Assembly (NCBI GenBank): GCA_018062285.1
Contig: JAGOSO010000001.1
Coordinates: forward strand, 32,773-96,772
Origin: Minisyncoccota bacterium
GTDB taxonomy: Bacteria > Patescibacteriota > Minisyncoccia > 2-02-FULL-40-12 > GWA2-44-9
Direction: 5' to 3'
DNA: 64,000 bases
Program-made: the position numbers and the translations under genes
Notes under the pieces: generated by a model
Told to the model about the DNA's origin: nothing
Databases searched by the model: none
Seen by the model: only the letters and a program-made list of their open reading frames with translations
Part shown: positions 1 to 58,137 of the stretch, piece after piece
Layout of the letters: each line of letters begins with the position of its first letter
How positions within the stretch are numbered: the stretch's first letter is position 1

Positions 1-501
1 TTCCGCCAATCTCGGGCGAACATCGACATGACAACCATGTCGTGGTATTTCCTACGAAGACGGTATTGCTCTCGGAGTACAGTTTCGAACTGAAATCCGA
101 GGTGGGCGTACTTAGTGCACGAGGCAGTGTTTTCTTTGAACACTTTCAAGTACACTTTGTGTAAACCAAGCTTGCCAAAAGCAAGAGCAAGAAGTTTCCG
201 TAGGGCCCGTGACGCAAAGTGCTGGCCACGATTCTGCTGTGAGAAAATCATGATACCGACCCTGGCGTTTTTGTTCTGCCTGTCAATTTCGTGAAGTCCA
301 CATGTCCCAATGATTTTGCCGTCACACAAGACAGAGAATAACTTATCTCTGTTGCTGGAGATGGCATGGGACAAATAAGCTTGTTGGCGCTCGACTGTGA
401 CCTTCCGTTCAAAAAACTGGAAGTTCTGTAGCGCGTCGACATTCATGGCTTCACACATTTCTTCCGCATCACTAAAACGTACTGGCCGGATGCTAACAAT
501 C
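1..501 (-). CDS. GNAT family N-acetyltransferase (partial; C-terminus beyond window start)
   Basis: Minus-strand ORF running off position 1. GTG start at 501-499, preceded by GGAGGAGAAAGC. Translation VKKIVSIRPVRFSDAEEM...GIMIFSQQNRGQHFASRALRKLLALAF...LHKVYLKVFKEN is GNAT-like (acetyl-CoA binding Q/RxxGxG/A-type segment). Confidence 0.55.
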
Positions 502-627
502 TTCTTCACGCTTTCTCCTCCCTAATTGTTAAACTTTTACCTCGAAACTTTTTTCGGGGCAAAGAATTGGAATCGAAACTGTTTCAATTACAATTCTTTA
601 GAGTTGACGAAGAGCCTCAGCTCTCCG

Positions 628-1233
628 TCAACGAGTGTCTTTGTAAAGACCGTGAATCGATAGATATTCCTCTGCTTGGGGAACCATTATACCGCTGATT
701 GATTCGCCAGATGCGACCCGTCGTCGAATCTCTTGGCTCGACGCACCTTGTTCAGCCTCGAGACTCAAGACAACACTGTGCGGTGGCAAATCTTCTGGCT
801 GAATTACGTAGCCCGGCCTCTGGATGACCGCGAAATTGAAGGTCTCCCAAACAAGATCCGCTTTCACCCAATGTTGGACATGTGACTGGCCAGAAGCTCC
901 GCCACAGATTAGATCCCCACCAACAACATGGAATATATCTCCTTCACTGGCGAACATCTCTTGAAGCTCGTAACACTTGGTGAACACGGACCGAGTAAGA
1001 TCAAAATCTTCAACTCGCACTCGATTCGGATCTAGCCCAAGAAGAGAAAGCTTCGTCATGGCTAAGCGATGGGCCGAGTCGACATTGTTTGTCGACAGCT
1101 TATCTGGTCGCAGGCCACAGATGATGACCAAAACTAGGTCGAAATACTGGAGTAGTAGTTCAACAATCTTGCGATGGTGTAAACCAAACGGATTGAAACT
1201 ACCACCAAACAAAGCAACTTTTTTTCTGGTCAT
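628..1233 (-). CDS. nadD: nicotinate/nicotinamide mononucleotide adenylyltransferase (NadD/NMNAT family)
   Basis: 201 aa. N-terminal GGSFNPFGLHH matches the GGxFxPxHxxH nucleotidyltransferase motif of NadD. GGAGG RBS 7 nt upstream of the ATG. Confidence 0.8.
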   Translation of the reverse strand: MTRKKVALFGGSFNPFGLHHRKIVELLLQYFDLVLVIICGLRPDKLSTNNVDSAHRLAMTKLSLLGLDPNRVRVEDFDLTRSVFTKCYELQEMFASEGDIFHVVGGDLICGGASGQSHVQHWVKADLVWETFNFAVIQRPGYVIQPEDLPPHSVVLSLEAEQGASSQEIRRRVASGESISGIMVPQAEEYLSIHGLYKDTR

Positions 1234-1278
1234 ACTCGGACCTCCTTTCTGATCGTTAAAATCTGAACCAAACTTTTG

Positions 1279-1320
1279 GAACAGAGATTTAGAACGAAAT
1301 TATTCGTTACAAATCTCTGT
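1279..1320. promoter_or_regulatory. 42-bp near-perfect inverted repeat (AACAGAGATTTGTAACGAA-TAAT-TTCGTTCTAAATCTCTGTT) in the nadD upstream region
   Basis: 19-bp arms with 2 mismatches and a 4-nt centre, read directly from the sequence. It lies between the G/C hairpin at 1333-1368 and the nadD RBS. It does not fit the GT-N7-AC NrtR motif. Confidence 0.3.
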
Positions 1321-1332
1321 TTTAAAAATTTG

Positions 1333-1368
1333 TCAGGGGGGGGCGCACATAGCGCCCCCCCTGACCGA
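1333..1368 (-). terminator. G8/C7 stem-loop (GTCAGGGGGGGGCGC-acata-GCGCCCCCCCTGAC) downstream of the 1378..2412 gene
   Basis: Near-perfect 15-bp GC stem seen in the sequence. A/T-rich tract follows on the minus strand. Possible terminator or attenuator between the amidohydrolase gene and nadD. Confidence 0.4.
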
Positions 1369-1377
1369 GAGAAGGCC

Positions 1378-2412
1378 TCAGGAAAAAATGAGCTGGTCGA
1401 TGGCTTCGTAGTCAGTCGAGTCGACCACATGCGCTCCGCGTTCTTGAAACCGCGTGAGCATATTTTCCATGTGCTCGGTGTAGTCGACCACACCCGGAAC
1501 CACAACTGGAGTCATGCAGTCCCGCAAGAAAACGACCTTGTCGGCAAAAGACGGATCCATCTCAATCAGACCAGTCAATAGATCATCGCCGCTTGCAGGA
1601 ACACAATGACTCCCAGCTTCACCGTCCAAAAAGGTGCGATGAGAGGAGCTGATCTTGTTGATCAACTCAACGTTCCTCTCTGCCCCGACAATCTGACCAC
1701 CGGAGTGTGTTGTCGTAACTTCGGGGGCAAAAATGCTGTAGTGCTCTGTGAGCGGGTTCTCACCCTTCAGAATGATTGGGTTATTCACTCCGCGAACGAA
1801 TCCGTGGAACAAACGAACCTCCTCAATCAGGCCTGCCAACCTGTGCCCATAAGAGCCTTTTAGGCAATGGTAGGGCCAAATTGTCAGTGGCGGCTTGCCA
1901 GCTCTCTCGAGCTGCTCGCAGTAATAGATGAACTGCTTTCGGAGCCAATCGACACCCACCCCAAGCTGATAGGCAAACAACGGGTTGGGTCGGTAGTTCC
2001 GGCGGTACTCATCGGCAGTGATTTGCGTGTGTGGCGCCGGATGATTCCCGCTTGCGTCGATGTGTGCCACTGGGAAAAAAATCTGAAACGGCACATGAGT
2101 GTCCATCGTATTGATGAACTGTGTGATGCACGGAAGATATCGATAACGGAACTCGCTTCTTCGGCGCAAAGCATCCATGGCGCCTGTGCCACTGCGACCG
2201 GCGACGAACAGGGCCCCATCCAGATAGTCGAAGTCCGACTGATCATCGATATCCAGAGCGTAGATTACTCGTGAATCCTGAGACGCCCGAGTAATGTCGT
2301 ATCCATCACGCCAGTAGTTGGCGGCGGCCATCAGAACTGCCGGATCGGGCCGGTAGGACGACACGTAGGCATTCTTGGGATCATAGTGCGGAGGCAACTG
2401 AAATTCTCGCAT
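1378..2412 (-). CDS. isochorismatase-fold cysteine hydrolase, PncA(nicotinamidase)-like, with ~70-aa N-terminal extension
   Basis: 344 aa. Paralogous to the 6859..7686 product: WPYHCLKGSYGH vs WPAHCLIGTWGH, NPLTEHYSIF vs NPWTEHYGAL, GEAGSHCV vs GEASSHCV, LRDCMTPVVVPGVVDY vs LEDCMSPVPAIPGVVDF. Retains a D (IDDQSDF), a K (ILKGENP) and a C (SHCV), plus DTH...AH metal-ligand-like residues. GGAGAGGAAG RBS. Confidence 0.6.
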   Translation of the reverse strand: MREFQLPPHYDPKNAYVSSYRPDPAVLMAAANYWRDGYDITRASQDSRVIYALDIDDQSDFDYLDGALFVAGRSGTGAMDALRRRSEFRYRYLPCITQFINTMDTHVPFQIFFPVAHIDASGNHPAPHTQITADEYRRNYRPNPLFAYQLGVGVDWLRKQFIYYCEQLERAGKPPLTIWPYHCLKGSYGHRLAGLIEEVRLFHGFVRGVNNPIILKGENPLTEHYSIFAPEVTTTHSGGQIVGAERNVELINKISSSHRTFLDGEAGSHCVPASGDDLLTGLIEMDPSFADKVVFLRDCMTPVVVPGVVDYTEHMENMLTRFQERGAHVVDSTDYEAIDQLIFS

Positions 2413-2539
2413 TTCTTCCTCTCCTTCTCTTTTGTAAAGAACCTTTTCCTTGCGTTTTCGAATAAAACAAGGGAATTATGGCCCATCAGCCCCAATTCTC
2501 TTGTCTCATTAAAACCTTCTCAAATTAAGCCATATAATA

Positions 2540-2570
2540 CATTAAAAATGGCCAAATGTCAACGAATAAC
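2540..2570 (-). promoter_or_regulatory. sigma-70-like promoter (TTGACA-N17-TATTAT) for the 1378..2412 gene
   Basis: Minus-strand sequence cgTTGACAtttggccatttttaatgTATTATatgg, about 130 nt upstream of the start codon. Confidence 0.4.
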
Positions 2571-2600
2571 CCTATGTCCCATCTTACTCCCACGAGCCTG

Positions 2601-2621
2601 TTATTGTCAATAGTACACTAA
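2601..2621. promoter_or_regulatory. NrtR-type operator (TTATTGT-CAATAGT-ACACTAA; GT-N7-AC core), slightly degenerate
   Basis: Same 21-bp palindrome family as 3368-3388, 7745-7765 and 7791-7811. Lies upstream of the PncA-like 1378..2412 gene. Its reverse complement carries a TTGACA -35 hexamer followed 17 nt later by GTAAGA/TAAGAT. Confidence 0.5.
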
Positions 2622-2635
2622 CTCTTGGCAAAAAA

Positions 2636-3358
2636 TTAAAGAACATCAATCTGCATAACTCGACCAGAACTAAACTTGTACAATTGAGCTGGTCGCCAAC
2701 GCTGGCCACGACGCTCATTTGCCGACTTCTCCAAGACATCAAGCTTTAATATCTTCTTTCTAAAATTTCTCTTATCCACTCCCCTATCAAGGATAGCCTC
2801 ATAGGCATTCTCGAGTTCAGTTAAAGTAAATTCGTGAGGCATTAATTTACTGATGATGGTGGTAAAGGCAATCTTCGATCTTAATCGTTCAAGACCAACA
2901 GATATAATTTGGCGATGATCATAAGCCAACTTTGGCAAAGCACTCACAGGAAACCACTGAGACACGTCAGAATCTTTTTGCTCTTCTTTTGAAAAACTAG
3001 CCCATGGAGCAAGAGCTAAATAAGCTACTGCAACAACACGGCCACGAGGATCACGCTTAACTTCACTGAAAGTATAAAGTTGTTCCAAATAAATATTTCT
3101 TGGATCAATATGACCTTTGTCTTTTATAATGCGCCTTGTTGCTTCTTCGGCGTTTTCTTCTGGATGAATAAGCCCGCCAGGCAAACCATGAATATTATTA
3201 AAATAGGGCGGAAGGTTAACTGGTATTAAACGAACATACAACATGCCATCACGGAAAGTAAAAAGAACTGTATCCGTAGCGAGAACAGCAAAACGAATCT
3301 TTGATGTTGAATTTTTAGATGTGGCTTTAGTAGTTGCCATATAGAGACATCTTATCAT
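2636..3358 (-). CDS. nrtR: Nudix-domain transcriptional regulator, NrtR family (ADP-ribose-responsive repressor of NAD metabolism)
   Basis: N-terminal Nudix box GLPGGLIHPEENAEEATRRIIKDKGH (Gx5Ex7REUxEExGU). C-terminal ~90 aa is winged-helix-like with NFRKKILKL...RPAQLYKF. Flanked by NrtR-type operators. Probable real start is M7 at 3340; the transcript looks leaderless because the -10 TAAGAT overlaps the first in-frame ATG. Confidence 0.65.
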   Translation of the reverse strand: MIRCLYMATTKATSKNSTSKIRFAVLATDTVLFTFRDGMLYVRLIPVNLPPYFNNIHGLPGGLIHPEENAEEATRRIIKDKGHIDPRNIYLEQLYTFSEVKRDPRGRVVAVAYLALAPWASFSKEEQKDSDVSQWFPVSALPKLAYDHRQIISVGLERLRSKIAFTTIISKLMPHEFTLTELENAYEAILDRGVDKRNFRKKILKLDVLEKSANERRGQRWRPAQLYKFSSGRVMQIDVL

Positions 3359-3367
3359 GTTTCAATC

Positions 3368-3388
3368 TTAGTGTCAATAGTACACTTA
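3368..3388. promoter_or_regulatory. NrtR-type operator (TTAGTGT-CAATAGT-ACACTTA) overlapping the -35 of the nrtR promoter (autoregulation)
   Basis: Palindrome TAGTGT-N7-ACACTA. On the minus strand the site contains TTGACA, then 17 nt, then TAAGAT immediately before the nrtR start. Confidence 0.55.
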
Positions 3389-3393
3389 TCCAC

Positions 3394-3424
3394 ATAAAAA
3401 GCCGCCACGGTGTATTGTGGCGGC
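3394..3424 (-). terminator. rho-independent terminator of the kinase gene (GCCGCCAC-ggtgtatt-GTGGCGGC plus T-run on minus strand)
   Basis: 8-bp GC stem followed by TTTTT on the minus strand (AAAAA at 3396-3400 on plus), directly downstream of the stop at 3435. Confidence 0.6.
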
Positions 3425-3434
3425 GATATTGGCA

Positions 3435-5174
3435 CTATTTCATCCTCAGGGACCAGAGGTCTCCATTGAGAATATAGGTGACCCTATCTCCCCAATTAGA
3501 CAAGCTCATGTCGGTAGCAATAGTTCTGTCATCAATCTGATTAACCTGACCATTGCTCGGCACAAAGATTTTCATCTGGCCATCTTCGACAATTGTTGCA
3601 CAGACACCCTTTGGCAAAATAGCCACGTTGAGTTCTGGACCATCGGCTTTCTCTTTTGAAATTCGATGCGACTTATAGTCGCCACCAAAAAACAAATCAA
3701 ATTTCTGATACTCGCCCGCCCGATCAAGACAGACCACAGAAACAAACCTATTGCCTGCAGAACCGGCAACAACGCGTAAGCCATCCAACTCTGCAACCCT
3801 CACGAGGATTAAAGAGCTATCGGAAAAAGGAACAACAACAAATGTGGCACCCATAGCATCCTGCACACCACACCCATTGAACCAACGAGTGGAATTGGTC
3901 ATGACACCCCAAGTCTTACCAACCGATACGATTGGCTTACCCAAGAGATGCATTTTTACTTCCGTTAAGCCATTCTCGGTAACAGCGAAGAGGCGGTTCT
4001 CATATCTAAGAACACTTCTGGCTTTCAAAGAAAGATCCAGAAGTGTTAATTTGAGACTTCCCTCTTCAACATACTGAAAAATGGTTTGCTGGTTCATTAG
4101 ATCTGCAACCAGCCATCCATCATCTACTTTCACGACCTCACAAGCACGAGAACTAGCTGTGCTAATTTGGCGTTTAGTAGCGACATCAACAAGTGCTCCA
4201 GAAGCCAACAAGACAACTCCGCAATGGAAGAGTCTAACTACTGAATCGTTTGGACGGCTCAGTAGTTTCTCAAAAACCAGAACCCCACTCTTGCTTGTTG
4301 TCACTGTTCGCATAACTTTTGCAGCCAGTGGAACAGTCAGCCCAGTATCAAATGGCGATGGTGGTCTTTGCCTTTCACCTTTTTGAAATGTCGCTTCGTA
4401 CCAACTGAGAAGCGGGGCAGGAATAGCAGAGAAATCTCGCACCGCGCGATTCAATCTCACACCAGAAGAGAAAACTGACGCTCCGGCTTTCATTCTCCCT
4501 TCAAGATTCCCCCGATCAAAACCATCGAGTGTCCCCTTGTAGGGATGCAGGCCGGTGTAGATTTGGAATGTCACAACTCCCCACGAGAACCAATCAGTCT
4601 TGTGATCAAACGTCTTGGCGTGCCAATCGCGAATTGATGGCATGATTACTGAAGCTGGCCAACGGCCAAGCGCCCAGGAATCAACGTCTACAACATGTGG
4701 CTCTGGCTCCGACTTGCGTCGTGATGCAAACCAATTCAATTCATTGGCATCAACGAGCAGAGCATTCTGACTGTGGGCAAAATCCACAACCTGACGCATG
4801 CGATCAACTAGAGTCGATGCATTCTGGTTTGTGAATCCTTCCTTCTGCCAAAATTCATTGGTGAACACTCGTGAAAGTGGATCACCATCAACATATGGCA
4901 TATAGAAGCCGACTGGGTCACCTGCCAGAGAAAAAACAAGCCCTCTGGGAGAAACGACATATGAGTGATTGAACCCAGACAGTATTTTCAACTTGTCTGG
5001 GATGCCTTTTTGTCGCATCTCTTTTGGGTCAAGATACATCTTCACAACAGAGTCACCGACTCGATAAATCGATCCTTCGCCACCAGTGGCAATATGATCG
5101 CTCGGCCGAATCGTAACCGTACCACGACCTTCAAGAACAACTTGGGTATTCCCCCTCACGATAGCTGGGGCCAT
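3435..5174 (-). CDS. protein kinase-like protein (atypical Ser/Thr kinase), third gene of a TerY-P-like triad
   Basis: Start taken at M9 (ATG 5174) because GGAGGAGG lies 7 nt upstream and it overlaps the PP2C stop. Has a glycine-rich loop TGGEGSIYRV, lysine motif SVVKMY, a catalytic-loop-like HSQNALLVDANELNW and a DxD segment VVDVDSW. The C-terminal ~300 aa are uncharacterised. Confidence 0.5.
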   Translation of the reverse strand: MAPAIVRGNTQVVLEGRGTVTIRPSDHIATGGEGSIYRVGDSVVKMYLDPKEMRQKGIPDKLKILSGFNHSYVVSPRGLVFSLAGDPVGFYMPYVDGDPLSRVFTNEFWQKEGFTNQNASTLVDRMRQVVDFAHSQNALLVDANELNWFASRRKSEPEPHVVDVDSWALGRWPASVIMPSIRDWHAKTFDHKTDWFSWGVVTFQIYTGLHPYKGTLDGFDRGNLEGRMKAGASVFSSGVRLNRAVRDFSAIPAPLLSWYEATFQKGERQRPPSPFDTGLTVPLAAKVMRTVTTSKSGVLVFEKLLSRPNDSVVRLFHCGVVLLASGALVDVATKRQISTASSRACEVVKVDDGWLVADLMNQQTIFQYVEEGSLKLTLLDLSLKARSVLRYENRLFAVTENGLTEVKMHLLGKPIVSVGKTWGVMTNSTRWFNGCGVQDAMGATFVVVPFSDSSLILVRVAELDGLRVVAGSAGNRFVSVVCLDRAGEYQKFDLFFGGDYKSHRISKEKADGPELNVAILPKGVCATIVEDGQMKIFVPSNGQVNQIDDRTIATDMSLSNWGDRVTYILNGDLWSLRMK

Positions 5175-5175
5175 C

Positions 5176-6042
5176 TCAAACCTCCTCCGCCAGATCAATG
5201 ACTTGTTCGATTCTTACAACAGCGAAAGAAATGTCATCAATTGGGCCTCGCCCAACCTGATGAAAATCTTTAATGCCTCGAATCATTCTCCGTTTAGCAA
5301 ATTCGCCCGTAGTATTCTTGAAAGCCAAGAGCGAACTCACTGCTTCTTGCCATGAAACACCTTCGACCTGAGTTACACCGTCAGAAAAAACGGCAATAAA
5401 CTCAAGTTCGGAAAGTTTTTCACGACTTAACTCCACCACAAAACCTGATCGTGCATCTTGGAATGGAATTAGGTTAATATTTTCTTCTTCTACTCTGGAC
5501 GAGCACTGCTTGATAGACATAGTGGCCTCAACTACATTGCCACCATGAATCCTATCAATGAATGTGATGGCATCTGCATCATCATACGCCGGATAGAACG
5601 GAGCGTTCTTGGTCCAATCAGAACGGAACATCATTGTTTCCCCGTTGCGATAACGCAAAGCGATAACTCCGTCACCTTGAACATGGACAAAGCCACTATT
5701 CTGGTTAATGAAAATGTAGGCGCAGGTCGAAAGCATATCGACCCTATTCAACCCCAGCATTAGCTGAGTGGATTTAAGGGTCGCCTGTTGGGCACTCGCA
5801 ATCAAGCGAGAATCCATGTCCGCTCGACCGACAAAAAGATGTGAGTCTTTGAGAGCCTGCAATGTTGCCAAGGCAAGCACTCGCGCACCAACATCGGTAT
5901 TCCCACCAGTTGAGCATCCATCTGAAACAATGGCGTAAGCTTCTGTGCCATTCGATCCAGAAATGGAATAGTCTTGGCAGGGCTTCCCACTAGAATAATG
6001 GGCCGCCCCGATGTGGAAGTAATGGTCAGCATAAAGTTTCAC
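5176..6042 (-). CDS. PP2C-family Ser/Thr protein phosphatase (TerY-P triad phosphatase)
   Basis: 288 aa. GTG start with GGAGG 6 nt upstream. PP2C/SpoIIE-like motifs: AIVSDGCSTGGNTDVG, later GDGVIAL and FAVFSDGV. Confidence 0.6.
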   Translation of the reverse strand: MKLYADHYFHIGAAHYSSGKPCQDYSISGSNGTEAYAIVSDGCSTGGNTDVGARVLALATLQALKDSHLFVGRADMDSRLIASAQQATLKSTQLMLGLNRVDMLSTCAYIFINQNSGFVHVQGDGVIALRYRNGETMMFRSDWTKNAPFYPAYDDADAITFIDRIHGGNVVEATMSIKQCSSRVEEENINLIPFQDARSGFVVELSREKLSELEFIAVFSDGVTQVEGVSWQEAVSSLLAFKNTTGEFAKRRMIRGIKDFHQVGRGPIDDISFAVVRIEQVIDLAEEV

Positions 6043-6095
6043 GATAACCCTCCGATAAAAAATGGGGATGGCGCACGTGCCATCCCCATGCGGAC

Positions 6096-6845
6096 CTAGA
6101 TGGTCGCCGCAATGTTCTGACTCGGGCCGCCAGTGCCCAGGGATTGGGACTGGCTCGAGACAGACTGCGAAACAAACTGGGCGATTTTTGCCAGCTTGCC
6201 TTTTGTTGCATCACCGGCGTCGATGTATTTCATGCCGGTTTCGGCTTCGAACTTCTCAAGATAGCCCTTGCAAGACTGAGCGTTGATACCAATGAGCACA
6301 CCAACGAGAGATTCAATCTCTTCGCCGACAAGCCCACGGTCCATCTCGTCTTTGACCATGCTGAGCGTTGCGCTTGAAGTGTTGTCGCCTCCGTCGGTAA
6401 TGACGAAAACGATACCGTTGGCCAGAAAGTCCTGGCCCATCAACCTCTTGGCGTAAGCGTTGGTAGCGCCGACCGCCGAGAAGGCAGCATCGTACAGCGG
6501 AGTCCAGCCACCAGTCCGGAAATCCGGATAGGTGTTCGGGTCAATCTCCCCCAGTGGTTTGAATCCGTGAATTTCTTCGATGCTGTTCTTGAACATATCG
6601 GAGAACAACAGGACTCGCAGGAGAAGATTGTTAGAACGGGGCGACTTCTTACACGAATCGACTGCGGCGATAACGCACCGCCGCAGCTCATCCTTGAAGC
6701 CGCTCACCGAGCCACTGACATCAACCGCGATAGTCACGAGCGTGTACTCGGTCGAGGTCAGGTGATCAATACGAACCGCCGAAAACTGGAAGCCTTGCCG
6801 GCCACCAATCTTCGAGGTTTCCGTGCCGTCATTCATTCGGGGCAT
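6096..6845 (-). CDS. von Willebrand factor A domain protein, TerY-like (TerY-P triad vWA)
   Basis: 249 aa. MIDAS motif VDVSGSVSG (DxSxS), then ...GGWTPLYDAA... and ITDGGDN, typical of TerY-type vWA proteins. GAGAGGAGAG RBS. Start is only 13 nt after the stop of the upstream PncA-like gene. Confidence 0.6.
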   Translation of the reverse strand: MPRMNDGTETSKIGGRQGFQFSAVRIDHLTSTEYTLVTIAVDVSGSVSGFKDELRRCVIAAVDSCKKSPRSNNLLLRVLLFSDMFKNSIEEIHGFKPLGEIDPNTYPDFRTGGWTPLYDAAFSAVGATNAYAKRLMGQDFLANGIVFVITDGGDNTSSATLSMVKDEMDRGLVGEEIESLVGVLIGINAQSCKGYLEKFEAETGMKYIDAGDATKGKLAKIAQFVSQSVSSQSQSLGTGGPSQNIAATI

Positions 6846-6858
6846 GATGCTCTCCTCT

Positions 6859-7686
6859 CTACTTCATGAAATCGACAGAGTTCGTGACGGTCATTCCCAG
6901 ACGCGTCATGTCTTTGAGCCACGCACTGGCAATCGCTGGGAAGTCGACGACCCCCGGGATAGCCGGCACAGGACTCATGCAGTCTTCGAGCAGGTGGAAC
7001 TTCTTGATGTGTTCCTGACCGATGTTCTTCGCGATCTGATTGACCGTGGTCAGCACGCAGTGACTGGAAGCTTCGCCGCCAACCAGAACAATGTCGGCTT
7101 CGGCCATGGTGTTCAGGAACTCCGTGTTCAAACCCGTCGAAGGGTCATCGGGGTCAGGAACTTCGGCCATGAGCGCGCCATAGTGTTCGGTCCAGGGATT
7201 CGAGCCCTTGGTCACGTAGTCGACCATGGCGAATTCCTTGTCCGACCAATGCTGAAGTGCTTCGTTCAGAACAGAGTGGACGTTGTGTCCCCATGTTCCG
7301 ATGAGGCAATGCGCCGGCCAGATGCAAATCTGGTACAGACCCGATGCTTCGAGCGTCTTGGCATAGGCCAAGGCACGCGCTCGGAATTGCGGATTGCGCG
7401 TGGTCCAGATTCCGGCTTCGATGTCCGACGCCGAAATGATCGTGAACGGGTTCGGCTGTTTGCCGCGCTGGTCCATCCAGAAAACCGGATGGGCGATGTC
7501 GAGCAGACGATGGCTGTCCAACGTCACGTGGATATCGTCGAGCTTGTGCCCGATTCGATCCACGAGCTTGGCCAACCGCTTCATGTCCGCATCAGCTCCA
7601 GGAACCGGCAACGTCGCGCCGGGGATGTCGCAGAAGTCGTTCTGCGGATCAATCACCAACAAATGCACCTTGAGAACTTTGCTCAT
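6859..7686 (-). CDS. pncA: PncA-like nicotinamidase / isochorismatase-family amidohydrolase
   Basis: 275 aa. N-terminal LLVIDPQNDFC (PncA VDxQNDF catalytic-Asp motif). Also LDSHRLLDIAHP (metal-ligand DxH...H pattern), K in YVTKGSNP, catalytic Cys in GGEASSHCV. First gene of the operon that continues into vWA, PP2C and kinase. Confidence 0.7.
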   Translation of the reverse strand: MSKVLKVHLLVIDPQNDFCDIPGATLPVPGADADMKRLAKLVDRIGHKLDDIHVTLDSHRLLDIAHPVFWMDQRGKQPNPFTIISASDIEAGIWTTRNPQFRARALAYAKTLEASGLYQICIWPAHCLIGTWGHNVHSVLNEALQHWSDKEFAMVDYVTKGSNPWTEHYGALMAEVPDPDDPSTGLNTEFLNTMAEADIVLVGGEASSHCVLTTVNQIAKNIGQEHIKKFHLLEDCMSPVPAIPGVVDFPAIASAWLKDMTRLGMTVTNSVDFMK

Positions 7687-7744
7687 AACTACCTCTTCTT
7701 TCCTTTGTTTGATTGTTAACGAGCTGTCCGTGTCTTATTTGTAC

Positions 7745-7765
7745 ATAGTGTATTTAGTACACTAT
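7745..7765. promoter_or_regulatory. NrtR-type operator (ATAGTGT-ATTTAGT-ACACTAT) near the -10/+1 of the pncA-like operon promoter
   Basis: Perfect 7-bp arms TAGTGT(A)/ACACTA with a 7-nt spacer (GT-N7-AC core). It sits about 45-60 nt upstream of the 7686 start codon. Confidence 0.5.
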
Positions 7766-7790
7766 GAGGGAAGACTAGCAGACCCTTGTC

Positions 7791-7811
7791 TTAGTGTCAA
7801 TAGTACACTTA
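7791..7811. promoter_or_regulatory. NrtR-type operator (TTAGTGT-CAATAGT-ACACTTA) upstream of the pncA-like/TerY-P operon, divergent to ychF
   Basis: Identical to the site at 3368-3388. Contains a TTGACA -35 on the minus strand. Confidence 0.5.
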
Positions 7812-7908
7812 TTAACAGGGGCAGGAGAGGGGATTTAAAAAATCTTTTAGAAATAAATAAAAACTATGACATGGTTGGTTTTTCGTGGTTTTCTGGTACA
7901 ATAAAGGC

Positions 7909-8995
7909 CATGTTATCAATCGGAATCGTGGGTTTGCCAAACGTTGGGAAGAGTACCCTCTTCAAGGCACTGACCAATAAACAAATAGATATTCAGAACT
8001 ATCCTTTCACCACCATCGACCCAAATGTCGGTGTTGTTGCCGTACCCGATGAGCGTATCGACAAGTTGGCCGAATTCTCGGGGACAAAAAAGAAAGTCTT
8101 CACAACTATCGAATTTATCGACATTGCCGGCCTAGTTAAGGGCGCTTCTCAGGGCGAAGGTTTGGGTAATAAATTTTTAGCCAACATTCGTGAGGCTGAT
8201 GCTATCGCCCAAGTTGTTCGTGCTTTCAACGACGACAATATTACCCACGTTCACAGTCGCGTAAATCCAGCCGAAGATATCGGAATCATAAATACTGAGC
8301 TCATTCTTGCTGACTCTGATACCGTAGCAAAGCGCATGGAAAAAACTTCTAAGCTAGCTCGTGCTGGTGATAAACTTGGTGTCCTTGAAATGGCTGGCCT
8401 TGAAAGATTCAAGAAACAACTAGATGCAGGCAATCTTCTCTATCATCTAACCTTAACGGAAGACGAGCAAAGGTTGATGAAAGAACTCAATCTCCTTACA
8501 GGTAAAAAATTCGTTTATGTTGTAAATGTTTCTGAGGACCAGCTCATTAGTCAGTGGCAGCCACCCCAAGAACTCATTGAGGCTATGGGTGGATCGCCTT
8601 ACGTTATCATGTGCAACAAGCTTGAATTAACCCTCTCTGAAGTTTCTCCGGAAGAAAAAGTTGAATATTTAAAAGAATTTAATCTACCAGAATCTGGCTT
8701 AGACACTTTAATTAAAAAAGGATATTACACTCTCGGACTTTTAACTTTCCTAACCACTGGTGTTGAAGAAACTCGCGCCTGGACCGCTCACCAAGGCGAC
8801 TTAATCCCTGTTGCTTCTCGTGCCATCCACACTGACTTTGAACGCCTCTTTATCCGCGCCGAAGTCATCAACTGGCAAGTCTTATTAGAAGCCGGATCAT
8901 ACGCCAACGCTCGCACCAAAGGCCTCGTCAAAATCGTCGGCCGAGACTACGTTATTCAAGAAGGCGACGTCGTAGATATACTCATTGGTAAATAA
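7909..8995 (+). CDS. ychF: ribosome-binding ATPase YchF (Obg-family GTPase)
   Basis: [22 protein letters not shown] (G1/P-loop), [12 protein letters not shown], and a C-terminal TGS-like domain. The longer track ORF 7394..8995 is an upstream read-through. A TG-extended -10 TACAAT sits 8 nt before the ATG, so the transcript looks leaderless. Confidence 0.9.
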
Positions 8996-9000
8996 AAACG

Positions 9001-32329: not shown

Positions 32330-33499
32330 CTAGGGGGCTGGGTCAAAAGCCTCTAAGGAATGGGCTAATTTGTCCACTTCTTCCCAACCAGCCTTAGAAT
32401 CAAAGTTGTATCTCGCAGGCAAAGCAATTACATATTTTGAATTCTGCCCCAAAATACTTGGCGGGATTGGTGCTGCCCCAACCGATATGTTGTCATCGGA
32501 AACTTTGTCATTAGTTACTCTTCTCCATTCATCCAATGTAAAAATCATTACTGGCAAATCTTCCCTCATGCTAGATGTCGCCCACTGAGGATGACGGAGT
32601 ATTATCTTCGGACCACGAATCGTCTTATTGTTATCATTCAAATATGCACCCTCCCACTGACTATTTAAAACCGTGTATCCCTTCCAAGCACTGGTTAATG
32701 GAATTGAAAATCCATACTGATTATTTTTATAGATAATAGAACTCGCTGAATCTTTTGATTTAAATGTGGTCAACATCTGATCAAAAATTTTGTCTTCTTG
32801 CTCAGGAGTCATAACACCTGGCAAAGCTAATATTTTTTTATAGTCCGTAATCAATGGTGTTCTCTCGGGATTGAAAGGTCTCTTGATGACAAGGGTGTGA
32901 TTAGCATCTATTGAAAAATAATATGTGTCGACACCACAGCCTTCTGCCCCCATCCTGAATCTGTAGCCACTCAAACCACCAGATGAATATGTATCGACGA
33001 AACCAGGCGACAATTTAAACTGACCATTTTCAAAAATATCTTTGGGGTAAAAATAATCTTTGGCCACACTTGAGCCCATGTCTCCATTAAACATTTTCCA
33101 TGCAGAATTAAAATCAACCACTTGAGTTAATGGCTGACTATCCCCTTTCATGTCGCAAGTATCTGAGTGTTGATATGGAACACCATGAGTAATTCTCGCA
33201 CCATCAACATTCTCCTGAATCAAAAAATTATTAGGATACTTAAACTCAAACCCATACTGTGTATTCACATACGTCTTCCAGCCTGCCGTCTCATCAGCCC
33301 CTAATGTTGGTGTTGGAGTTGCCACAACTACCGTTTGTTGTTTCTGCCAATACCAGATACCGACATAGGCACCAGCGCCGAGTAAAATTAAAATGCCTAA
33401 AGTGATGGCAAACTTTTTATTTAGGAAATGACGATGAGGATTAGAGTAAGTTGCAAGTGGGACTAAGGGCTGTTCTGCTTGAGGGGTTATTGGGTCCAT
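32330..33499 (-). CDS. N-terminally membrane-anchored secreted protein with repeated WKTYxNxxYGFEFKYP-motif domains (389 aa)
   Basis: Tandem paralog of 33487..34533. Shared N-terminus HRHFLNKKFAITLGILILLGAGAYVGIWYWQKQQ, a Pro/Thr linker, and repeats GWKTYVNTQYGFEFKYPNNF plus a degenerate second copy. Confidence 0.5.
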   Translation of the reverse strand: MDPITPQAEQPLVPLATYSNPHRHFLNKKFAITLGILILLGAGAYVGIWYWQKQQTVVVATPTPTLGADETAGWKTYVNTQYGFEFKYPNNFLIQENVDGARITHGVPYQHSDTCDMKGDSQPLTQVVDFNSAWKMFNGDMGSSVAKDYFYPKDIFENGQFKLSPGFVDTYSSGGLSGYRFRMGAEGCGVDTYYFSIDANHTLVIKRPFNPERTPLITDYKKILALPGVMTPEQEDKIFDQMLTTFKSKDSASSIIYKNNQYGFSIPLTSAWKGYTVLNSQWEGAYLNDNNKTIRGPKIILRHPQWATSSMREDLPVMIFTLDEWRRVTNDKVSDDNISVGAAPIPPSILGQNSKYVIALPARYNFDSKAGWEEVDKLAHSLEAFDPAP

Positions 33500-58066: not shown

Positions 58067-58137
58067 CGGGCTGTAGTGTAACGGTAGCACGAGTCCATGG
58101 GGTGGATTTAGTCCGGGTTCAAATCCCGGCAGCCCGA
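58067..58137 (+). tRNA. tRNA-Pro (anticodon GGG)
   Basis: Manual fold: 7-bp acceptor CGGGCUG/CAGCCCG, U8, D-stem GUGU/GCAC, anticodon stem AGUCC/GGAUU with loop AUGGGGU (U33, anticodon GGG, G37), T-arm CGGGU-UCAAAUC-CCCGG, discriminator A. CCA is not encoded. A terminator follows at 58153-58180. Confidence 0.75.

Follow-up and report, generated by a model that had tools for sequence, protein, structure and literature searches.

Why should a von Willebrand factor A (vWA) protein, a PP2C-type phosphatase and a Ser/Thr kinase be encoded among the nicotinamide adenine dinucleotide (NAD) genes of a patescibacterium? The question is raised by positions 628 to 7,811 of a 64,000-nt stretch of DNA (hereafter the window) from a Minisyncoccota bacterium (contig JAGOSO010000001.1, forward-strand positions 32,773 to 96,772), where genes for a PncA-like amidase, a vWA protein, a PP2C phosphatase and a kinase follow one another next to a gene for the regulator NrtR. 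A preliminary description, made without database searches, had read this island as a TerY-P-like triad placed behind NrtR operators and linked to a nicotinamidase. The analysis reported here shows that the four genes form a conserved cassette which, by the criteria customary in comparative genomics, can be counted among the conserved members of the NrtR regulon in Patescibacteria. We lean, if only slightly, toward the view that the cassette encodes a phospho-switch controlling the nicotinamide-to-nicotinate step of NAD salvage, which would be derepressed by ADP-ribose.

The cassette and its NrtR operators

The cassette genes and nrtR were found at the following positions.

6859-7686, minus strand: nicotinamidase-like amidase, 275 aa, first gene of the cassette (PncA motifs, PDB sequence matches)
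6096-6845, minus strand: stand-alone vWA protein, 249 aa (predicted structure and fold search)
5176-6042, minus strand: PP2C-type Ser/Thr phosphatase, 288 aa (Pfam PP2C_2)
3435-5174, minus strand: Hanks-type Ser/Thr kinase with an all-beta domain, 579 aa (ATG start; alternative TTG at 5198)
2636-3358, minus strand: NrtR (Pfam NrtR_WHD and NUDIX; start possibly the internal ATG at 3340)

On its profile matches, the product of 2636-3358 is a true NrtR-type protein. Its C-terminus matched the Pfam winged-helix family NrtR_WHD at 79.7 bits (cut-off 27) and its N-terminus matched NUDIX at 32.1 bits (cut-off 21.1), so the winged-helix regulator proposed earlier is confirmed. Against the NCBIfam model for the ADP-ribose (ADPR)-responsive repressor it scored 125.5 bits, which is under the equivalog cut-off. 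The Nudix box is degenerate (GGLIHPEENAEEATRRIIKDKG, with RRIIKD where REUxEE is expected), as suits a sensor and not a hydrolase. In the annotated contig (L001) the gene is called at 234 aa.

The bare GT-N7-AC core of the operator was not enriched in the 64-kb window (193 matches compared to 192 expected). The 19-bp palindrome TAGTGT-N7-ACACTA, with one mismatch at most, occurred at exactly four sites in the window, all of them intergenic and within the island; the site that comes next, with two mismatches, falls within a tRNA-Pro gene at 58074. The four sites bear out the earlier report of four palindromes by nrtR, a second PncA-like gene and the cassette.

7792-7810: NrtR box 1, cassette promoter (TAGTGTCAATAGTACACTT, one mismatch; the minus strand holds a -35-like TTGACA)
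7746-7764: NrtR box 2, cassette promoter (TAGTGTATTTAGTACACTA, perfect; 60-78 nt 5' of the amidase ATG, past a putative -10)
3369-3387: NrtR box 3, upstream of nrtR (overlaps the TTGACA of a TTGACA-17-TAAGAT promoter-like site)
2602-2620: NrtR box 4, upstream of the 344-aa PncA-like gene (overlaps the TTGACA of a TTGACA-18-TAAGAT promoter-like site)

The positions of the boxes, over -35-like hexamers or between the -10 and the amidase start, give the geometry of a repressor, and box 3 predicts autoregulation of nrtR.

Conservation of the cassette was assessed with the vWA family as anchor, in 80 loci drawn from genomes representing species and in 59 loci of phages or proviruses, the open reading frames (ORFs) of which were labelled with reference proteins from three annotated contigs. 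The genome loci comprise 61 that are Patescibacteria-like and 19 labelled as other phyla (Bradyrhizobium isolates and metagenome-assembled genomes (MAGs) of Methylococcaceae, Rickettsiales, Bdellovibrionales and Myxococcales). The phage loci come from 57 IMG/VR contigs and from two huge phages with deposited genomes of 485 and 595 kb. The cassette recurs in about 120 other loci. The full tetrad, in the order amidase-vWA-PP2C-kinase, was present in 55 of the 61 Patescibacteria-like loci, the rest being cut by contig ends, as well as in 12/19 loci of other phyla and 53/59 phage loci, both huge-phage genomes included. The gene just 5' of vWA is almost always an orthologue of the 275-aa amidase (66% identity), and in 134 of 139 loci the gene ahead of vWA encodes an amidase with its catalytic residues intact. 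The amidase is therefore the constant partner of the other three, and the conserved unit is a tetrad. Relatives thus keep the four genes adjacent and in the same order, as the preliminary description had asked of them; its grouping of vWA, PP2C and kinase as neighbours stands, and its treatment of the three as a free-standing triad does not.

Within Patescibacteria the cassette proteins share 62-78% identity, and NAD-related genes lie within 10 kb in many of the 61 loci: pncB, the most frequent neighbour (35), nrtR (32), nadD (17), nadK (11), an ADP-ribosylglycohydrolase gene (8) and pnuC-nadR (4). The operator travels with them. In the 80 genome loci, 135 boxes with no more than one mismatch were found, compared to 4 in shuffled sequence, and box density was 2.06/kb upstream of the cassette and 0.073/kb elsewhere. 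At least 40 of 57 Patescibacteria loci have a box upstream of the cassette amidase, so that the palindrome noted in the window recurs in its relatives, and in 19 of the 57 the boxes are in tandem. TTGACA is contained in 24 of 84 boxes upstream of the PncA-like gene. The same box also occurs ahead of nrtR, pncB, pnuC, nadD, nadK, pncA and the ADP-ribosylglycohydrolase gene in related Patescibacteria loci. Several box-negative loci have two-mismatch variants (TCGTGT...ACACGA), and in others the cassette lies within a longer operon that starts at a boxed pnuC; the count of 40 is therefore a lower bound. The box was absent from proteobacterial loci and essentially absent from phage loci, the latter indicating that the NrtR wiring is lineage-specific.

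NrtR regulons as such are established. Rodionov et al. (2008, PMC2330246) described a 21-bp palindromic operator, the targets pncA, pncB, nadD, pnuC-nadR and prs-nadV, and ADP-ribose as the effector, acting as an anti-repressor. The island shares with those regulons the Nudix plus winged-helix repressor, an operator with a GT-N7-AC core placed over promoters, and autoregulation. It differs in that Patescibacteria were outside that study and in that the regulon here adds a vWA protein, a PP2C phosphatase and a Ser/Thr kinase. Judged from gene content and operators, the presence of these three in an NrtR regulon seems to be what is new, NrtR regulons and triads of the TerY-P/YegL type being known already.

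Boxes 1 and 2 face a divergent ychF gene on the plus strand, and a role for them in regulating ychF was considered and rejected, since elsewhere the boxes travel with the cassette and not with ychF. The public call for this YchF GTPase (7730-8995, 421 aa) begins within the NrtR-box region; its conserved N-terminus points to a start at 7911 (7911-8995), which leaves a shared intergenic region of 224 nt. An Rfam scan of positions 1-9000 returned a single sub-threshold miRNA model and no riboswitch.

Four proteins and a proposed switch

What do the four proteins do? The 275-aa amidase falls under the curated cut-offs for its family (Pfam Isochorismatase, 21.3 bits against 27; NCBIfam PncA, 32.3 bits, E 8.4e-8, against 174). 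Nicotinamidases are its top PDB sequence matches, and its relatives carry the JGI name nicotinamidase-related amidase. The catalytic triad D13, K160 and C210 and the metal ligands D57, H59, H66 and H126 are each conserved in at least 95% of 135 homologues. We take D13, D57, H59, H66, H126, K160 and C210 to correspond to D8, D49, H51, H57, H71, K96 and C138 of Mycobacterium tuberculosis PncA, with which they align. The cassette enzyme thus has the Asp-Lys-Cys triad, the Asp-His-His(-His) metal site and the WPxHC motif of PncA enzymes such as M. tuberculosis PncA and yeast Pnc1. It differs from them in length (275 aa compared to about 180-215 aa), in its sub-threshold scores and in its genetic coupling to a vWA gene.

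These differences bear on the substrate. Compared with canonical PncA, the enzyme has about 90 additional residues; an insert of some 55 residues (67-120) is conserved, the C-terminus is extended, and some lineages add a further N-terminal domain of about 200 aa. Such features, together with the low PncA and isochorismatase scores and the canonical PncA that accompanies the cassette in some loci, would fit an enzyme acting on another amide, such as nicotinamide mononucleotide (NMN), nicotinamide riboside, NAD or a nicotinamide-derived signal, in which case a different NAD or ADP-ribose node would be controlled. We consider this doubtful, because the nicotinamidase triad, metal ligands and WPxHC are all retained and the commonest neighbour, pncB, encodes an enzyme that consumes nicotinate.

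The N-terminal domain itself takes two forms. In some Patescibacteria it is fused to the cassette amidase, giving a 518-aa protein (L003, 8352-9908); in others it is a separate upstream gene adjoining a 197-aa gene (L002, 7757-8968). Pfam gave no match for the domain, its separate-gene form or the 197-aa gene.

The vWA protein of the window had no Pfam match, and a PDB sequence search with the vWA profile found nothing; among 39 diverse members of the family, 12 matched Pfam VWA. An AlphaFold2 model built with 22 homologues has a vWA fold (predicted local distance difference test score, pLDDT, 84.4; predicted template-modelling score, pTM, 0.86), and its Foldseek matches include integrin I domains, a pilin vWA and the NorD vWA. 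The metal-ion-dependent adhesion site (MIDAS) is complete, with D42-x-S-x-S46, T115 and D151; D42, S46, T115 and D151 are invariant in 142 sequences. The C-terminal tail (residues 224-249) is disordered, rich in Ser and Gln and almost invariant (FVSQSVSSQSQSLGTGGPSQ...), phage copies included. No fusion of vWA to amidase or kinase was seen among the top 150 representative-library matches, all of which are stand-alone proteins of about 250 aa. JGI labels relatives of this protein 'YegL'.

The phosphatase matched PP2C_2 in Pfam at 53.2 bits (cut-off 24), and its metal-binding residues D24, D41, D50, D124, D221 and D269/270 are conserved in 120 sequences. The kinase scored 25 bits against Pfam Pkinase, under the cut-off of 31.7; its fold and catalytic residues are supported by predicted structure, fold search and conservation. 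A Hanks kinase domain (about 1-277) is followed by an all-beta domain of about 285 aa (about 295-579) with some 29 predicted strands. Paired-Cys CxxC motifs were not seen in this C-terminal half on inspection by eye only, which argues against a zinc ribbon. Identity as a small-molecule kinase was rejected, the best structural matches being Hanks protein kinases with the C-lobe included. The protein identities proposed from the sequence alone were therefore upheld, NrtR, PP2C and NadD by profiles and vWA and kinase by predicted structure and fold search. With conserved active-site residues and recognisable folds, amidase, vWA, PP2C and kinase all look catalytically competent.

Expression of the four genes was considered from their junctions. 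On inspection of the sequence, amidase and vWA are separated by 13 nt containing GAGGAG, vWA and PP2C by 53 nt, and PP2C and kinase meet at TGAgATG, the kinase ATG lying 1 nt past the PP2C stop codon. Two terminator-like structures were found.

6057-6089 (6089-6062), minus strand: terminator-like hairpin in the vWA-PP2C spacer (11-bp stem, 7 GC pairs, TTTTT)
3401-3424, minus strand: intrinsic-terminator-like hairpin closing the cassette (8-bp stem, 7 GC pairs, TTTTT)

The first has a folding energy of -23.9 kcal/mol (z -2.8), and is followed immediately by GGAGG, the ribosome-binding site of PP2C. In 39/70 loci, compared to 14/210 control windows, a hairpin plus T-run was present within 90 nt past the vWA stop; its presence is conserved across loci, its sequence is not. 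The hairpin fills the spacer, so that a promoter could not fit there, and expression of PP2C and kinase most likely requires read-through. Read-through would keep amidase and vWA high and phosphatase and kinase low, as expected for an enzyme and its stoichiometric partner accompanied by catalytic regulators. The operon proposed earlier is thus divided by the conserved hairpin after vWA, which makes a uniform transcript of the whole cassette unlikely.

These observations suggest the following switch. NrtR would bind the boxes over the promoters of nrtR, the 344-aa PncA-like gene and the cassette and repress them. When ADP-ribose, a product of NAD cleavage, accumulates, NrtR would leave the DNA and the cassette would be transcribed. 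The amidase would convert nicotinamide to nicotinate, feeding PncB and the Preiss-Handler route, with the vWA protein as its stoichiometric partner. Kinase and PP2C would reversibly phosphorylate the Ser-rich vWA tail, and this would switch a MIDAS-mediated interaction and hence nicotinamidase output; the beta domain of the kinase may sense the input. The proposal draws on the observed gene content, folds, intact catalytic residues, conserved operators and hairpin, and the proximity of the tetrad to NAD genes, seen in Patescibacteria, in phages and on a megaplasmid.

Several points weigh against the proposed switch. The ADP-ribose effector, the enzyme activity, the phospho-target, the vWA-amidase partnership and the direction of the switch are all things that we infer. 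The putative sensor domain of the kinase was assigned no fold, and no OB fold was identified in it, kinase matches having dominated both fold searches. The vWA-PP2C hairpin may stop transcription completely, and NrtR would then not govern PP2C and kinase. A canonical PncA is encoded alongside the cassette in 6 Patescibacteria loci, and the cassette amidase may thus do something other than plain nicotinamide deamidation. Outside Patescibacteria, 16 of the 19 genome loci had no NAD gene within 10 kb that the reference-protein set could detect, and the Bradyrhizobium tetrads lie in prophage-like DNA.

A variant of the cassette in Variovorax bears on the role of the vWA protein. A megaplasmid of this genus carries nrtR divergent from amidase-vWA, with no PP2C or kinase, which suggests that amidase and vWA are the core pair. 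In Variovorax sp. SRS16 plasmid 2 (L143, 629756-648457) the flanking genes encode macro-domain, Nudix, RecX, deoxyribosyltransferase-like and NAD kinase proteins. This arrangement would also suit a vWA protein that acts as a maturation factor or metallochaperone for the amidase metal centre, kinase and PP2C merely tuning it. Such a role would agree with the Asp-His-His(-His) metal site that the amidase keeps and with the hairpin, which implies that amidase and vWA are expressed at similar, high levels, and nicotinamidases of M. tuberculosis and E. coli have been reported to need metallochaperone-like proteins for reactivation (PMC6941528). The NorD vWA among the structural matches belongs, according to the title of its PDB entry, to a NorQ-NorD complex. 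Known vWA maturation factors act with a MoxR-type AAA+ ATPase. No such ATPase was found in the cassette loci, and the invariant Ser-rich tail and near-constant kinase and PP2C argue for phosphorylation control; we regard the chaperone role as unlikely.

Two further arrangements were seen outside Patescibacteria. In Variovorax a perfect palindrome, GTTAGTT-N9-AACTAAC, lies 65 nt 5' of the amidase gene; it may be an NrtR operator specific to this lineage. Myxococcales and other delta-proteobacterial MAGs (L081-L083) have the order (amidase)-vWA-kinase-NrtR; PP2C was not detected in them, and their kinase is shorter (446 aa in L083).

Phage copies and related systems

Is the cassette a housekeeping device or a weapon? 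Its presence in phages raises the second possibility, namely a mobile counter-defence device that would rebuild NAD+ by a Preiss-Handler-type route from the nicotinamide freed by host NADases. Kinase, PP2C and vWA would then form a switch sensing infection or depletion, and the Patescibacteria copy would be domesticated or ancestral. This overlaps with the proposed salvage switch, the selective pressure being conflict and not housekeeping, and we treat it as a serious complement to that switch and as possible, though far from probable, in its own right.

The tetrad is present in the two huge phages and in IMG/VR contigs, nearly always complete (the 53 of 59 loci given above). In 21/59 phage loci pncB lies within 10 kb, in several of them between vWA and PP2C; nadD, prs, a NAMPT-like gene and nrtR also occur nearby, and 27/59 have pncB, nadD, prs or a NAMPT-like gene within 10 kb. 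Carriage by phages strengthens the earlier suggestion of a response to NAD depletion. The vWA proteins of Patescibacteria and Proteobacteria share 42-57% identity, which points to horizontal transfer, and the Bradyrhizobium copies are within IMG/VR proviruses, adjoining PDDEXK and HerA genes. Precedents exist in the phage NAD+ reconstitution pathways (NARPs) NARP1 (Adps and Namat), NARP2 (NadV and NMNAT) and NARP3 (PnuC and NadR). As in these, the genes are compact and mobile; the NARPs rebuild NAD+ after depletion by host NADases, a role that the cassette may share. The PnuC and NadR genes of NARP3 also adjoin the cassette in some Patescibacteria loci.

On the other side, the phage role is read from gene context. 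None of the NARP enzyme pairs is in the cassette, which instead encodes a nicotinamidase that with PncB would form the Preiss-Handler entry, and no NARP includes a kinase, phosphatase or vWA protein. Cellular DNA may have been wrongly classed as 'viral' in some of the IMG/VR contigs. Among Patescibacteria the cassette is common, strongly conserved and part of the host NrtR regulon, and it resembles housekeeping there. In the two huge phages other genes are interspersed among those of the cassette; Pfam searches of these were uninformative.

The Bradyrhizobium copies inside IMG/VR provirus calls are L045, L048, L061, L088 and L090-L092. Their neighbours are DUF3799 PDDEXK, radical-SAM-like, DUF3268 zinc-finger and HerA-like helicase genes, with no NAD genes detected nearby.

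The domain set also recalls known signalling modules. TerY-P consists of a TerY-like vWA, a PP2C and a kinase ending in a zinc ribbon, its stand-alone defence form ending in an OB fold, and TerY-P-like modules have been reported as anti-phage systems (PMC11090510). The cassette has the same vWA-PP2C-kinase order and domain set, a perfect MIDAS, mobility, and distant homology to E. coli YegL, PphC and YegI. It could on this basis be a stress or anti-phage module of the TerY-P type, acting for example by abortive infection, in which the NAD link would reflect co-regulation or hitch-hiking and the amidase would be an accessory or effector, destroying for instance a nicotinamide-containing molecule. 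The evidence makes this quite improbable. The kinase ends in the all-beta domain, with no recognisable zinc ribbon, and the context is NAD salvage or phage genomes, with pncB and nadD consistently adjoining, and not Ter clusters or restriction systems. An intact amidase precedes vWA almost throughout. PADLOC matched no model to the seven island proteins or to 39 vWA relatives, save one weak kinase match to MADS6, and the cassette is therefore not classed as a TerY-P defence system. A tblastn search of 72,556 plasmids (E up to 1) returned the Variovorax copies alone and no Ter-cluster TerY gene.

The families were also compared by profile with the E. coli proteins. The kinase family aligned with YegI (hhalign 96.5%, E 7.8e-10) and the vWA family with YegL (84%, E 7.6e-6, the Ser-rich tail included in the alignment); for PP2C and PphC a short N-terminal motif alone aligned. 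By these alignments, vWA/PP2C/kinase is a distant homologue of YegL-PphC-YegI. The TerY-P-like label given earlier is thus apt as a statement of homology and not as one of defence type. In E. coli K-12, yegL-pphC-(yegJ)-yegI lies at 2149039-2153128 (L144), with no amidase gene ahead of yegL.

A third relative is the DRA0331-0334 operon of Deinococcus radiodurans, which encodes a vWA protein, a Ser/Thr kinase, an FHA protein and a PP2C and acts in DNA-damage signalling (bioRxiv 10.64898/2026.01.23.701218). It likewise combines vWA, Hanks kinase and PP2C in one operon as a signalling module; it differs in having an FHA protein and in having no amidase and no link to NAD or NrtR.

In the literature searched, no paper couples a nicotinamidase with vWA/PP2C/kinase or NrtR with Patescibacteria, and papers on NAD genes of jumbo phages do not mention the cassette. 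The earlier claim of novelty agrees with this, with one caveat: nrtX and nrtY of Rodionov et al. (PMC2330246), from Proteus mirabilis, Hahella and Streptomyces, resemble the Variovorax arrangement and might be an amidase-vWA pair. If so, the pair was recorded in 2008 as genes of unknown function, and what is new would shrink to its coupling with kinase and PP2C and its occurrence in phages. The names nrtX and nrtY were met in no other paper.

The cassette is strongly conserved in Patescibacteria, which depend on salvaged cofactors, and occurs in huge phages, prophages and a megaplasmid as well. It therefore bears both on symbiont physiology and on the arms race between phages and bacteria over NAD+ depletion. 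To our knowledge, the control of bacterial NAD salvage that has been described is transcriptional (NadR, NiaR, NrtR); a kinase/phosphatase/vWA switch on the nicotinamidase step would, if real, add a post-translational layer. It would give a testable function to the TerY-P/YegL-type triad, a widespread module of unknown output. More speculatively, the tetrad may be an undescribed, horizontally mobile and phosphorylation-gated entry into the Preiss-Handler route, wired to NrtR and ADP-ribose in ultra-small symbionts and serving huge phages as a fourth kind of NAD+ reconstitution against NADase immunity. It would then be the first TerY-P/YegL-PphC-YegI-type triad with an identifiable metabolic output, and could explain what the orphan yegL-pphC-yegI of E. 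coli senses. All four proteins are small, look soluble and keep their active sites, which puts these hypotheses within reach of direct tests in vitro and in E. coli.

The second amidase gene, nadD and the flanks

The remaining features of the island lie downstream of nrtR.

1378-2412, minus strand: second PncA-like amidase, 344 aa (ORF; shared catalytic motifs)
1234-1377, minus strand: structured 144-nt spacer between the 344-aa PncA-like gene and nadD (-72.5 kcal/mol, z -10.5)
628-1233, minus strand: NadD-like nicotinate-nucleotide adenylyltransferase, 201 aa (Pfam CTP_transf_like, 53.2 bits)

With these, all seven genes of the preliminary description were found as minus-strand ORFs exactly where it had placed them. 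The 344-aa amidase is a paralogue of the cassette enzyme (28% identity) with the same catalytic motifs. The NadD-like protein matched the NCBIfam NadD models at E 1.5e-18, under the cut-off.

In the spacer ahead of nadD, a GC hairpin (about 1366-1332) is followed by AAATTTTT and then by an inverted repeat whose arms measure 30 nt (1269-1332). This sequence is present in a single copy in the window and matched no Rfam family. The spacer probably insulates nadD from the NrtR-controlled promoter, and it could combine a terminator with a further regulatory hairpin or an operator for nadD. With this terminator-like hairpin upstream and no box ahead of nadD, control of nadD by NrtR is doubtful here; the earlier assignment of a box to the PncA-like gene followed by nadD stands for the 344-aa gene, which has box 4 ahead of it.

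Beyond position 1 of the window, downstream of nadD, the contig (L001, 16337-20750) encodes a GNAT protein, a 190-aa Nudix protein, a 528-aa protein with a weak NAMPT_N match, a Prs-like protein and NadE. No Patescibacteria NrtR box was found at any of these genes. The NAMPT-like and Prs-like genes may represent NadV/Prs or, alternatively, a Namat/Adps pair like that of NARP1. Between nadD and the GNAT acetyltransferase gene, which reaches past the window start, an AT-rich inverted repeat with 19-nt arms (561-599) is probably a terminator. A protein identical to the vWA protein of the window has been deposited from a Candidatus Pacebacteria MAG.

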